DNA of 64,000 nt from a virus: IMG/VR virus record IMGVR_UViG_3300042452_000786, positions 1 to 64,000 of that record. One strand, given 5' to 3'. How positions within the stretch are numbered: position 1 is the stretch's first letter; each line of letters begins with the position of its first letter. Positions 47,226-62,026 of the stretch are shown in pieces. The translations under genes were made by a program, and so were the position numbers. The notes under the pieces were generated by a model that searched no databases, was not told the origin of the DNA, and saw only the letters and a program-made list of their open reading frames with translations.

Positions 47226-47309
47226 GGGAGCATGGCGGAATTGGTAGACGCAGCGGATTTAAAATCCGCAGGCGGCAACGCTGTGGGGGTTCAAGTCCCC
47301 CTGCTCCCA
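47226..47309 (+). tRNA. trnL: tRNA-Leu(UAA)
   Basis: Acceptor GGGAGCA/TGCTCCC, anticodon arm GCGGA-TTTAAAA-TCCGC, long variable arm, TTCAAGT T-loop; no intron, no encoded CCA. Confidence 0.95.
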
Positions 47310-47311
47310 TT

Positions 47312-47384
47312 GCTGGATTAGCTCAGTGGTCAGAGCACTCGCCTTGTAAGCGAGGGGCCGTCAGTTCAAATCTGACATTCAGCT
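47312..47384 (+). tRNA. trnT: tRNA-Thr(UGU)
   Basis: Acceptor GCTGGAT/ATTCAGC, anticodon arm CTCGC-CTTGTAA-GCGAG, TTCAAAT T-loop. Confidence 0.93.
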
Positions 47385-59921: not shown

Positions 59922-61874
59922 TCAAACGATGGTGAAAGCTGCGGTGACGAAGTCCTTGTTCAGGTTGGCAAAGCCAGCGTACAGCTGCCAAATCAAGATG
60001 ATAAAGCGGCTGAAGTCATCGTTGTTGTTGATGAGAACCTGAGCGTTGGGGCCACCGATGCCCACGCCAACGGCCTGAGGACCGAAGAACAGAGCAGGAG
60101 GAGTGTTGTGAGACACAGCGCCGAGACCGTCGCCAGTGTCCACAGTGATGGACTTGTCAGCAAAGTTGGTGGACTCGAAGAAACGTACGCCTTCAAAGAC
60201 AAAGCCAGAAGGCATGATCGGTTCACCAGCCACGAATTGAGCTTGGCCGTACTGACCGCCGCCATAGATGGAGGCGTTGGGAGCCATGGCACCCATAAGG
60301 GGGTTAGGCTGGCCCATGCCAGGGTAACGAGCCACTTCACGGAAACCTTGGTCAGCACGCAGATCCTTCATGAAAGAGGGATCAGCAATACAGCGGTAGT
60401 AACCGTCAGCAAAGACAGGCACATTGCGCTTGCGGAGTTGCTTGACAACTTCCAGAAGGTCAGTTTTGACGTTGAACTTATAACGCTCAGAAGCGTATTC
60501 TGTAGCGGAATAAGCAGTCAGCGTGGTAGAGCCAGTCTTGATCTTACCGTTGGGGTAGTAGTAACCACCTTGGGTGTCAGAAGAGGCACCACGAGCTTCC
60601 GATTTCGAAAACTCATCAAGGAACACACGATCGCGCCAGCGGCGATAGTCGTCTAGCAGGGTCAGCGAACCGATGGACTGGTGGAACATGTTAAGGTTCC
60701 CGGTGTCCAGCAGCAGACGCTGAGCGGTCATCAGAGTCTCACGAGCAATTTTGAAAGTGCTCGGGAGGTTGGAGTTGTTCGGGTCGGCAGGACCAGTGTA
60801 CTCACGCAGAGAGACGAGCACTTTGTCCTTAACGATGGAGCGGCTATTAGCCGTACCAATCGTTTGGTCTTGGGTACGCTCACGCTGAGTTTTGGTGCCG
60901 GGGTTGCCCCAGAAACGGTACCGGTCTAACTGAACAGTTTGACCAGGCTGTTTAGTGAAGTCGTGGACAACAACAGGCTCGGCTGCCATTTCCACAATAT
61001 AAGCCGGGTGGGGACGGTACAGCTCCGCGCCCAACAGCTTGGGAAAATCGTTCTCCTGATCTCCAGTCTCCTGAAGGGGTGGACTATCTCTTCACCCTGT
61101 AAGGGTGCCGGGCGCTAATGGCGTATTACGAATGAAGCGTCATTCACCGCCTAGTCTCTGCACCTTCCAACTACGTACTTAGTTGGCTTGGCTCAGGATT
61201 ACCCTCGACTTGACGTTAGGGCTTCCCTGAATTCACCCGGTTTTCACTGATCAGTTGCCTGATCAGGCGACAACGTTGACTACTCAGCTAAGTCGTGTTA
61301 GGATTGGAATCAAGTTGTTTTTATACAACATGGAACCAAAACTTGTTCCTGGATTTGAAAACCTTTACTTGAGCTTTTCTGGGACTCCTTATCAAAAAAT
61401 CAATGAAGACTTTGTTGAATTAAAGGTCAGCTCATCAAGCATGTACGACAGGGTTTCTGTTCTTAAAAATGAAAAGAAAGAAAGGCACCATGTACACGTT
61501 CTTATGGCTGTGACATTTTTAGATTTAGATTTAGCTTTACACGGAACCGGAAGTGCTTCTCTTCAAGTTGATCACAAAGACGGAAACAAAAGAAACAATT
61601 CTCTTGAAAACCTTGAAGTTGTTACAAAAAGAGAGAATTACGATAGGGCGTTAAAAGCTGGGTGCTACTCTAAAAATGGTTACGCCAGTAAAGGTAGGCC
61701 AAAGAAAACATTAAGAAAGTTTTCGGAGGATGACATTGTGCAGATTAAAGAAATGAGATCAGACGGTCTTTCTTATAGAAAAATTGCTGCTTACTTTAAC
61801 TGCAATCACTTGGCCATTTATCAAATCTTAAAAGGAAAAACCTATCAGGATCTGAGTTAGCTATCGATAAACAT
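59922..61874 (-). CDS. major capsid protein, spliced: exon 1 61874-61863 (MFID) joined to exon 2 61052-59922 (NDFPKLLGAELYRP...), 380 aa
   Basis: HK97-like features (GQTVQL, GVRFFEST, FFGPQAVG, DDFSR..W); in-frame join across the group I intron. Confidence 0.88.
61276..61304 (+). promoter_or_regulatory. sigma70-type promoter for the intron HNH gene
   Basis: TTGACT-17 nt-TAGGAT with TG extension. Confidence 0.75.
61330..61860 (+). CDS. intron-encoded HNH homing endonuclease, antisense to the intron
   Basis: HVHVLMA..F...QVDHKDGNKRNNSLENLEVVT..EN; C-terminal HTH. Confidence 0.9.
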   Translation: MEPKLVPGFENLYLSFSGTPYQKINEDFVELKVSSSSMYDRVSVLKNEKKERHHVHVLMAVTFLDLDLALHGTGSASLQVDHKDGNKRNNSLENLEVVTKRENYDRALKAGCYSKNGYASKGRPKKTLRKFSEDDIVQIKEMRSDGLSYRKIAAYFNCNHLAIYQILKGKTYQDLS

Positions 61875-61989
61875 GTTGGTAATTCAGCGTAAGTTTTAGC
61901 TGAAACCAGGATCTGGAGGATCCTTGGGTACAGTAGTTTCCGGTTTCCCGTAACCGCTGCTTGCCTGGAACTTCCGTCCCATTGAAAAA

Positions 61990-61998
61990 ATTATAGCA
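61990..61998 (-). promoter_or_regulatory. extended -10 promoter of the capsid gene
   Basis: TGcTATAAT on the minus strand, ~115 nt upstream of ATG. Confidence 0.6.
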
Positions 61999-62026
61999 AC
62001 CCTTTATCAATCCAGATTATTTAAGT

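Follow-up and report, generated by a model that had tools for sequence, protein, structure and literature searches.

Relation to described introns

Group I introns in capsid genes have been reported in mycobacteriophage LittleE and lactococcal phage Tuc2009 (PMC3706429). The intron of LittleE, a Cluster J phage (Pope et al. 2013, PMC3706429), shares many properties with the one described here. It interrupts the major capsid gene, is ~0.8 kb long (819 bp, compared to 810 nt here), follows a 5' exon that ends in U, ends in G itself and carries a homing-endonuclease gene (HEG) on the bottom strand; close relatives of the phage lack the intron, and the most abundant virion protein needs splicing for its production (PMC3706429). 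Capsid-gene group I introns with a bottom-strand endonuclease are thus already known, and the present locus is another instance.

The two systems also differ. The LittleE intron was described only as 'most likely a group I' (PMC3706429), whereas Rfam clearly identifies the present one as group I. The LittleE ORF is called HNH in a figure legend and LAGLIDADG-like in the text (PMC3706429), while the protein encoded here is I-HmuI-like. The LittleE intron lies further inside its gene and its host phage is an actinobacterial siphovirus (PMC3706429); here the intron is found 12 nt after the start codon, in a freshwater cyanophage. Furthermore, unlike in LittleE, the HEG-plus, HEG-deleted and minimal forms of the intron are all found in one population.

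The introns of SPO1 and SP82 (I-HmuI and I-HmuII) are likewise phage group I introns with an HNH endonuclease of ~175 aa, but the gene they split encodes a DNA polymerase and not a capsid protein. Their endonuclease genes are located on the sense strand. In cyanophages, introns are present in psbA of S-PM2, S-CBWM1 and S-SRM01 and in the Pf-WMP3 DNA polymerase gene (I-PfoP3I, PMC3428280). These too are group I introns in protein-coding genes, some of which have HNH or neighbouring endonucleases, but their host genes belong to the photosystem and to replication, not to the capsid. The S-CBWM1 psbA intron is 70% identical to the present core over ~185 nt, and an unannotated stretch of S-SRM01 is 84% identical to it over ~100 nt. 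A literature search found no report of an antisense endonuclease gene in the psbA or DNA-polymerase introns of cyanophages and no published description of an intron in an S-EIV1-type capsid gene. Antisense endonuclease genes do not come up in a 2014 review on group I introns of bacteria (PMC3984707), nor do capsid genes.

A homing-endonuclease gene antisense to the ribozyme is also a property of nuclear rDNA introns (e.g. L2066, PMC9548176). These introns, however, reside in eukaryotic rDNA, encode a His-Cys box nuclease and rely on Pol II-like signals and spliceosomal introns for its expression, in contrast to the phage mRNA, HNH nuclease and putative bacterial-type promoter found here.

The intron and its host gene

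The window analysed here is a 64,000-nucleotide stretch of DNA (positions 1 to 64,000 of IMG/VR virus record IMGVR_UViG_3300042452_000786). It contains the capsid gene of a ~76 kb freshwater phage related to Synechococcus phage S-EIV1, and this gene is very probably split by a self-splicing intron with an antisense homing endonuclease. The gene and the intron are laid out as follows.

61863–61874, minus strand: exon 1, ATG TTT ATC GAT (MFID); in intron-less homologues MFID is followed by NDFPKLLG without a gap
61862–61053, minus strand: group I intron, 810 nt, directly after codon 4 of the major capsid gene
59922–61052, minus strand: exon 2, 376 codons and a stop, starting AAC GAT TTT CCC at 61052

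The initial annotation had proposed a group I intron between codon 4 and AAC GAT, and its coordinates, its length of 810 nt and its end bases all proved correct: U is the last base of the 5' exon and G (61053) is the last base of the intron. The proposed class is borne out by the Rfam covariance model RF00028, which matches 61300–61060 (minus strand) over its full length (1–253) with a score of 93.7 bits (E 8.3e-23; gathering score 50 bits), far beyond chance.

More than 70 intron-less relatives read ATG TTY ATH GAY/AAC GAY TTY CC (MFID/NDFPKLLGAELY; the slash marks the junction) without interruption, which places the intron exactly at 61862–61053. The intron is missing from S-EIV1 and, among the 80 nearest IMG/VR loci, from more than 70, and these sequences read MFID(T/N)DFPK(I/L)LGAELY; alignment of the intron-less homologues shows that they encode exactly the N-terminus predicted for the spliced gene, MFIDNDFPKLLG. 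A ~90% identical contig from a DNA run of the same lake lacks exactly these 810 nt, and intron-plus and intron-less alleles are both present in one lake sample. All aligned intron copies finish with ...GGAG, followed by AAC or AAU. The stop that the initial annotation had noted at codon 6 of the unspliced frame (AGC UAA) is present here and in all copies (31/31).

The host gene encodes an HK97-fold major capsid protein. The protein matches PHROG 1357, a major head protein family (E 3.5e-16), and the Foldseek PDB matches listed for its AlphaFold2 model (pLDDT 77.4, pTM 0.79) are all phage capsid or head entries, the best being cyanophage P-SCSP1u (E 2.4e-13). A Pfam-A search with the protein gave no match, a PDB sequence search gave a chance-level match only, and TIGR04387 scored below its cut-off. 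Distant capsid homologues begin with MFIDEI, MTFIDNQ and similar sequences. The capsid ORF is absent from the S-EIV1 reference record.

Ribozyme core and guide pairing

The elements of the ribozyme are distributed over both ends of the intron.

61060–61300, minus strand: ribozyme core aligned by Rfam, with P2 (61266–61247, GCAA loop), P3–P8, a P7.1 composite hairpin and P9 (GAGA loop)
61860–61866, minus strand: 5' strand of P1, CGAU/AGC; the 5' splice site has a U.G wobble
61852–61857, minus strand: 5' strand of P1a, ACUCAG, an extension of P1 that closes the loop with the endonuclease gene; its partner is CUGAGU at 61287–61282
61268–61275, minus strand: internal guide sequence CGUUGUCG, in which GUUGUCG pairs in P1 and CGUU pairs with the beginning of exon 2 in P10

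Across 20 distinct copies, 1486 of the 1500 pair cells (99%) are canonical, and 19 of the 75 pairs show compensatory changes on both sides. In controls in which the partner was slid by 1–3 columns, canonical cells fell to 30–45% and only 1–5 pairs changed on both sides. The helices drawn by hand in the initial annotation, P3 (CCGGGUG with CGCCCGG), P7 (GACUA with UAGUC) and P8 (CACCCU with AGGGUG), the GNRA-capped P2 and P9, and the insertion between P7 and P3, were all recovered and are supported by covariation in the same copies. The Rfam match, the covariation and the fold of a minimal copy identify the core as a genuine group I ribozyme, and the covariation signal that population data provide for it is strong. 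The P7-to-P3 insertion is a 32-nt composite hairpin, in which GGCG...CGCC encloses GUGAAUGA and UCAUUCGU, with three covarying pairs. Introns of subgroup IA have additional helices in the interval from P7 to the 3' strand of P3 (P7.1/P7.1a or P7.1/P7.2); the peripheral hairpin here is tentatively IA-like and might correspond to IA1, IA2 or IA3.

The pairing of the guide with both exons, also proposed initially, was recovered with a P1 longer than suggested, namely 7 bp formed by CGAU/AGC and GUUGUCG at 61274–61268. In the proposed splicing mechanism, these two strands, ~590 nt apart, would come together as P1 with the U.G pair at the splice site, while the same guide, CGUUGUCG, would pair with the start of exon 2 as P10. 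Among the 20 distinct copies, 136/140 cells are canonical in P1 and 79/80 in P10; the splice-site U.G pair is present in every copy (20/20), and exon position -4 covaries with the guide, as C-G in 14 copies and U-A in six. P1a displays compensatory changes in L088 and L098 (GCUCAG with CUGAGC) and in L138 (GCUCCAC with GUGGAGC). The hairpin that Rfam aligns locally as P1 (61296–61270) was rejected as a forced alignment that is absent from other copies.

That P1 must form over ~590 nt could slow folding. The locus is also a test case for splicing versus translation: in the late gene with the highest expression, the intron sits 12 nt past the start codon, and ribosomes at initiation would occupy the 5' strand of P1. 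In a minimal 230-nt copy, P1 is a 7-bp hairpin with a UAAC loop, and the MFE fold of this copy reproduces helices P1–P9 unaided (z -4.7). The Rfam score of this copy, L111, is 102 bits.

An antisense HNH endonuclease gene

The loop closed by P1 carries an open reading frame antisense to the intron.

61330–61860, plus strand: HNH homing-endonuclease gene, 176 codons, ATG at 61330 and TAG at 61858–61860

The product matches Pfam HNH_3 (E 6.4e-11, 42.2 bits compared to a cut-off of 24.8) and PHROG 59 (E 5.5e-24). A phmmer alignment with I-HmuI (1U3E; E 2.2e-6) covers residues 2–134, i.e. the N-terminal and HNH parts, and aligns the motif QVDHKDGNKRNN...NLEVVTKREN, conserved in 21/21 copies, with that of I-HmuI. 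For a putative C-terminal helix-turn-helix DNA-binding module, HTH_38 (21.9 bits) and HTH_7 (18.1 bits) both score under their Pfam cut-offs, and the alignment with 1U3E ends at residue 134. The gene is intact and free of indels in all 21 copies (21/21), with a dN/dS of 0.07–0.18 and synonymous sites near saturation among copies.

Intron-less alleles, introns with the HEG and introns without it are all found at one conserved site of the capsid gene. The putative endonuclease would most likely act on co-infecting relatives, nicking or cutting their intron-less capsid genes, and repair would then copy the intron into the relative's capsid gene, i.e. homing. The intron-less candidate target of the 176-aa protein reads ATGTTTATYGAT^AACGAYTTYCC. 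The locus adds a second case, among phages, of an endonuclease gene in antisense orientation, and a conserved promoter-like element illustrates a possible route for its expression from within an intron.

Promoter-like elements and the antisense arrangement

The endonuclease and capsid genes each have a promoter-like element.

61276–61304, plus strand: promoter-like site for the HNH gene, TTGACT, 17 nt, TAGGAT with TG before it
61990–61998, minus strand: TGCTATAAT, an extended -10 promoter-like element that lies upstream of the capsid ATG and gives a 5' leader of ~110 nt

The HNH site was turned up by a consensus scan, in which a single site is no more than chance. Its pattern, TTGA(C/G)T-N17-TGnTAnnnT, is kept in 12/12 distinct upstream sequences, and the surroundings of the -10 region are otherwise variable. 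Its -35 box complements the AGUCAA joint next to P1. RNA structure also constrains this box, as well as some of the spacer. Conservation of the pattern suggests a promoter function. Upstream of the capsid gene, a TGnTATAAT element is present 85–125 nt before the ATG in most related loci and probably acts as a promoter. A terminator-like hairpin is found inside the intron at 61349–61332 (minus strand); such sites are no commoner than in shuffled sequence.

The antisense arrangement might itself be functional, such that transcription of the endonuclease gene and splicing or translation of the capsid pre-mRNA control each other. The promoter would be built from the complement of the P1/J1 region of the ribozyme, and the HNH transcript would be fully complementary to the 5' splice-site region, exon 1 and the capsid leader, which would allow mutual control via transcriptional interference or RNA duplex formation. 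If true, such control would put homing early and capsid synthesis late. We regard this proposal as rather doubtful.

Size classes and loss of the endonuclease gene

The same intron is present at the same site in 37 other viral contigs. A search of IMG/VR with a core 18-mer returned 36 contigs, 34 of which, together with the divergent L138, carry the intron at this capsid-gene site. The introns fall into three size classes: 806–810 nt, with the endonuclease gene; 268–274 nt, with most of that gene lost; and 227–230 nt, the minimal intron. In a tree of the core, which has few variable sites, the minimal forms are nested among the HEG-bearing ones. The minimal forms may be ancestral or may have arisen by precise deletion between short UAAC/CAAC repeats. 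The endonuclease gene has disappeared in at least three independent events, and the ORF-less introns left behind look working. A single site offers a natural homing-cycle series of empty alleles, minimal introns, intact-HEG introns and at least three HEG deletions of independent origin.

These losses bear on the role of the gene. Its long retention under strong purifying selection, in a constant antisense orientation and with a promoter-like element of its own, is what would be seen if the protein no longer served homing, or not homing only, and instead excluded other phages by cutting their capsid genes, or if the antisense transcript regulated the capsid pre-mRNA. Repeated independent loss that leaves working-looking introns is, however, the pattern expected of a selfish homing gene and not of one that benefits its host, and such a role is unlikely. 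A selfish homing gene remains the preferred reading.

Splicing of the capsid pre-mRNA

Splicing would join ...AUCGAU to AACGAU... and produce a capsid protein starting with MFIDNDFPKLLG. The 21 exon-2 codons that precede the first in-frame ATG contain 24 variable nucleotide positions, 19 of which are third positions, and 16 of the 17 distinct alleles that bear the intron encode one and the same 21-codon peptide. Since change in these codons is nearly only synonymous, they appear to be translated, which requires splicing. Comparison of alleles and selection on the codons before the first ATG thus point to splicing in RNA. The initial annotation had inferred that production of the major capsid protein depends on splicing, and this selection, the intron-less homologues and the ribozyme core all support it.

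Alternatively, the intron could be an inactive relic, with the capsid protein made from unspliced RNA starting at Met-22 of exon 2 (60989–60987). Gene callers and an ESM Atlas record do start the protein at this residue, and the single metatranscriptome with related sequence, a freshwater run containing few of the stretch's words, yields contigs on exon 2 only (60552–60980), short of both splice sites, with no spliced RNA among them. A relic, however, would account neither for the clear protein-level purifying selection on the 21 codons upstream of Met-22 in intron-bearing alleles, nor for the covariation of the ribozyme core and the exon–guide pairing, nor for the presence of the N-terminal segment in all capsid homologues, down to 25% identity. 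We therefore consider a relic very unlikely. With a spliced capsid gene, the start at Met-22 in the ESM Atlas record and in several library proteins is the misannotation of the N-terminus that had been anticipated, and the presence of the intron leads to mis-called capsid genes in a widespread lineage of freshwater phages.

Placing the 5' splice site locally, at the Rfam P1 hairpin near 61291, would reduce the intron to ~240 nt and leave the HNH gene free-standing between a non-coding leader and the intron. The Rfam alignment, which puts model positions 1–27 on 61300–61270, is compatible with this. The local hairpin, however, lacks a U.G pair at a usable site and is unconserved in other copies, no minus-strand reading frame reaches it, the whole 810 nt are missing from intron-less alleles, and P1 of the minimal copies is a hairpin formed by exon 1 itself. 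A local site is highly improbable, and the distal P1 at 61860–61866 is retained.

Finally, although the source is a metagenome-derived viral contig, an assembly chimera is refuted by the recurrence of the same arrangement in dozens of independent contigs from many samples and in 19 metagenome runs from lakes, each containing 91% or more of the words of the stretch, and its probability is negligible.

Borders of the capsid gene intron

The capsid-like reading frame of the window is open from 61091 to a stop at 59922, with its first ATG only at 60989. Upstream of it lie a short first exon and a group I intron, which were assigned as follows:

61863–61874 (−): exon 1, ATG TTT ATC GAT (MFID)
61053–61862 (−): group I intron, 810 nt
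61268–61275 (−): internal guide sequence
61330–61860 (+): endonuclease ORF, from ATG at 61330 to TAG at 61860, occupying the region from the 5′ splice site to the core
59922–61052 (−): exon 2

On the minus strand, the 5′ junction (61874–61852) reads ...accaacATG TTT ATC GAT / AGCTAACTCAG... and the 3′ junction (around 61053/61052) reads ...GATCAGGAG / AAC GAT TTT CCC AAG CTG TTG GGC... The coordinates and stems proposed in the initial annotation were all borne out on rechecking the sequence, as were the guide sequence CGUUGUCG at 61275–61268 and the stop at codon 6 (AGC UAA) of the unspliced RNA. The group I assignment agrees with a match over the full length of the Rfam model at 61300–61060 (−) (93.7 bits, E 8.3e-23); the model matches nowhere else in the 75.9-kb virus record.

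Most of the nearest relatives lack the intron. In more than 70 of the 80 nearest IMG/VR loci, ATG TTY ATH GAY is joined directly to AAC GAY TTY CC, and the encoded N-terminus runs straight through MFID/NDFPKLLGAELY. The closest locus (L003) is one of these, with 97% amino-acid identity and a leader nearly identical to that of the window. Among isolates, only Synechococcus phage S-EIV1 has a related protein (70% identity); its N-terminus, MFIDTDFPKILGAELY, is uninterrupted in a six-frame ORF with a GTG start (L001, 2992–4143). Distant homologues, down to ~25% identity, also carry 4–8 residues ahead of the FP.LLG motif (MFIDEI, MTFIDNQ, MAWNDID). A ~90% identical contig, from a DNA run of a lake that is a possible source of the window, jumps from 61052 to 61863, an omission of exactly 810 nt. 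Together, the intron-less alleles and this contig set the intron borders, as read from DNA, at 61862–61053.

Structure of the ribozyme

Pairs in P1–P10 were counted in an alignment of 20 distinct copies, from which the P1-loop insert had been removed. Canonical pairs occupy 1486 of 1500 cells, and 19 of the 75 pairs have changed on both sides; when the 3′ partner was slid by 1–3 columns as a control, 30–45% of cells were canonical and 1–5 pairs showed such changes. Seven of the eight P2 pairs have changed, and compensatory changes occur in each of P3, P6a, P7.1a, P8 and P9. Pairing of the guide with both exons, predicted from a single sequence, is upheld by covariation of exon position −4 with the guide (C–G in 14 copies, U–A in 6), by the invariant U·G wobble at the splice site and by P10 (CGUU with AACG; 79/80 cells canonical). 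The local ‘P1’ drawn by Rfam in the window shows no conservation and was rejected. In ORF-carrying copies P1 is lengthened by a 6-bp P1a (ACUCAG/CUGAGU), which covaries to GCUCAG/CUGAGC in L088 and GCUCCAC/GUGGAGC in L138. An energy-only fold of the minimal intron of contig L111 (102 bits in Rfam) recovers P1, P2, P3, P4–P6, the P7.1 hairpin, P8 and P9 (z −4.7).

Splicing

The gene that the intron interrupts is essential, and the genome is near-complete. In the one RNA run that yielded related contigs, these extend over only part of exon 2. The N-terminal codons were compared in 34 intron-bearing alleles, 17 of them distinct. Of the 24 variable nucleotide positions in the 21 exon-2 codons before the first in-frame ATG, 19 fall in third codon positions; 16/17 distinct alleles encode the same peptide, NDFPKLLGAELYRPHPAYIVE. 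These codons thus appear to be translated, so that the start must be the exon-1 ATG and the intron must be removed. Codon conservation therefore argues strongly for splicing.

Its structure and established group I chemistry suggest how the intron would act. The conserved TGCTATAAT element (61998–61990) would probably drive transcription of the capsid gene, and P1 would form across the loop with the assistance of P1a. Guanosine would attack after the U of GAU, with P10 aligning exon 2 for ligation. The in-frame UAA at intron bases 4–6, found in 31/31 copies, would free ribosomes that had initiated on unspliced RNA. By analogy with I-HmuI and I-PfoP3I (PMC3428280), the endonuclease would be made from its own plus-strand transcript and may attack intron-less capsid genes in mixed infections.

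The antisense endonuclease gene

The endonuclease ORF encodes an HNH_3 domain (E 6.4e-11), with a weakly matching HTH in addition; it is matched by PHROG HNH endonuclease families and resembles I-HmuI (PDB 1U3E; E 2.2e-6) at nearly equal length. Its stop codon is complementary to bases 3–5 of the intron, within P1. All 21 copies are intact, with 176 codons and no indels, and pairwise dN/dS is 0.07–0.18, with synonymous sites close to saturation. The divergent capsid lineage of L138 (MWID/NDFPKV) has the same layout, with a 59% identical endonuclease. These sequence comparisons point to a functional gene that has long lain antisense to the intron.

A single promoter-consensus match, such as TTGACT-17-TAGGAT with a TG extension upstream of the gene (61276–61304, +), is at chance level; TTGA(C/G)T-N17-TGnTAnnnT is present in 12/12 distinct upstream sequences, its −10 part within otherwise variable sequence. 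A short inverted repeat, GTTGT-N7-ACAAC (61311–61329, +), runs up to the start codon and is retained by most copies; it could gate endonuclease translation.

Distribution and loss of the ORF

An 18-mer from the core is present in 36 IMG/VR contigs, 34 of which carry the intron at the same capsid-gene site, as does the divergent L138. The introns fall into three classes:

With endonuclease gene, 806–810 nt: antisense ORF intact
Deleted, 268–274 nt (L088, L098, L110, L102): ORF mostly missing, end points differ
Minimal, 227–230 nt: ORF absent; simple hairpin from exon 1 and guide

Both ends of the ORF region are clearly kept in L088, L098 and L110. The minimal hairpin is CGAU/AGC-UAAC-GUUGUCG in L111 and UGAU/AA...GUUGUCA in the L084 group. 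In a core tree built from few variable sites, ORF-less forms appear nested among ORF-bearing ones in at least three places; repeated ORF loss, as in the classical homing cycle, is the simplest reading of these sequences. Intron-plus and intron-less alleles were both found in one lake sample.

L138 (IMGVR_UViG_3300034198_028150) has, in addition to the codon-4 intron, a second group I intron in its capsid gene (1877–2148, −; Rfam 65.7 bits), after codon 36, between ...VVHDF and TKQPGQTV. Two unrelated viral contigs also contain the 18-mer: L092, in which Rfam detects three group I introns inside 1.5 kb (567–2058, −), and L101 (around 1192–1209, −), where a sense-strand HNH ORF lies ahead of a related core and the sequence after the core resembles the 3′ half of a tRNA. 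Stretches 75–84% identical to the core occur in jumbo phages of Klebsiella and Escherichia (e.g. MT708547.1, 302902–303067) and in Synechococcus phage S-SRM01 (209586–209687); no feature is annotated there, and by sequence they are probably group I introns.

Comparison with known introns

Earlier reports describe group I introns in the capsid genes of phages. In mycobacteriophage LittleE the capsid gene contains an 819-bp intron that is spliced in vivo and whose endonuclease ORF is likewise on the opposite (bottom) strand; the same paper cites the capsid intron of lactococcal phage Tuc2009 (PMC3706429). Cyanophage introns are known in psbA and a DNA polymerase, and antisense endonuclease genes have otherwise been described mainly in nuclear rDNA introns (PMC9548176). 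For capsid genes of the S-EIV1 type, a literature search turned up no description of an intron. Given these precedents, the intron is a further, well-supported case of a known element. Three points add interest: the intron lies just 12 nt past the start codon, the promoter-like element on the antisense strand is conserved, and the natural series of homing-cycle stages is unusually complete.

The capsid gene and its annotation

Exon 2 matches PHROG 1357 ‘major head protein’ (E 3.5e-16) and, weakly, the N4-gp56 capsid family; language-model neighbours of the protein bear Phage_capsid_3/4. An AlphaFold2 model built with 30 diverse homologues as input (pLDDT 77, pTM 0.79) has only HK97-fold capsid proteins as top PDB matches (best E 2.4e-13), including those of cyanophages P-SCSP1u and Pan3 and of GP4, N4 and T7. 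Mis-annotation of the N-terminus, anticipated in the initial annotation, does occur, since the ESM Atlas record and several library proteins begin at Met-22 of exon 2.

In most relatives, the capsid ATG follows an extended −10 element, TGnTATAAT, at a distance of 85–125 nt (window 61990–61998, −; likewise L003–L082). This suggests a promoter belonging to the capsid gene itself, with a structured leader of ~100 nt. In the S-EIV1 reference record (KJ410740.1), the capsid gene is unannotated (L001 2917–4143, record 60784–62010): the homologue is a 383-codon ORF, and the record shows an antisense ORF (AHV82227.1) and a 3′ fragment (AHV82228.1). Elsewhere in the window, two tRNA genes lie side by side at 47226–47384 (+) (Rfam 63 and 71 bits).
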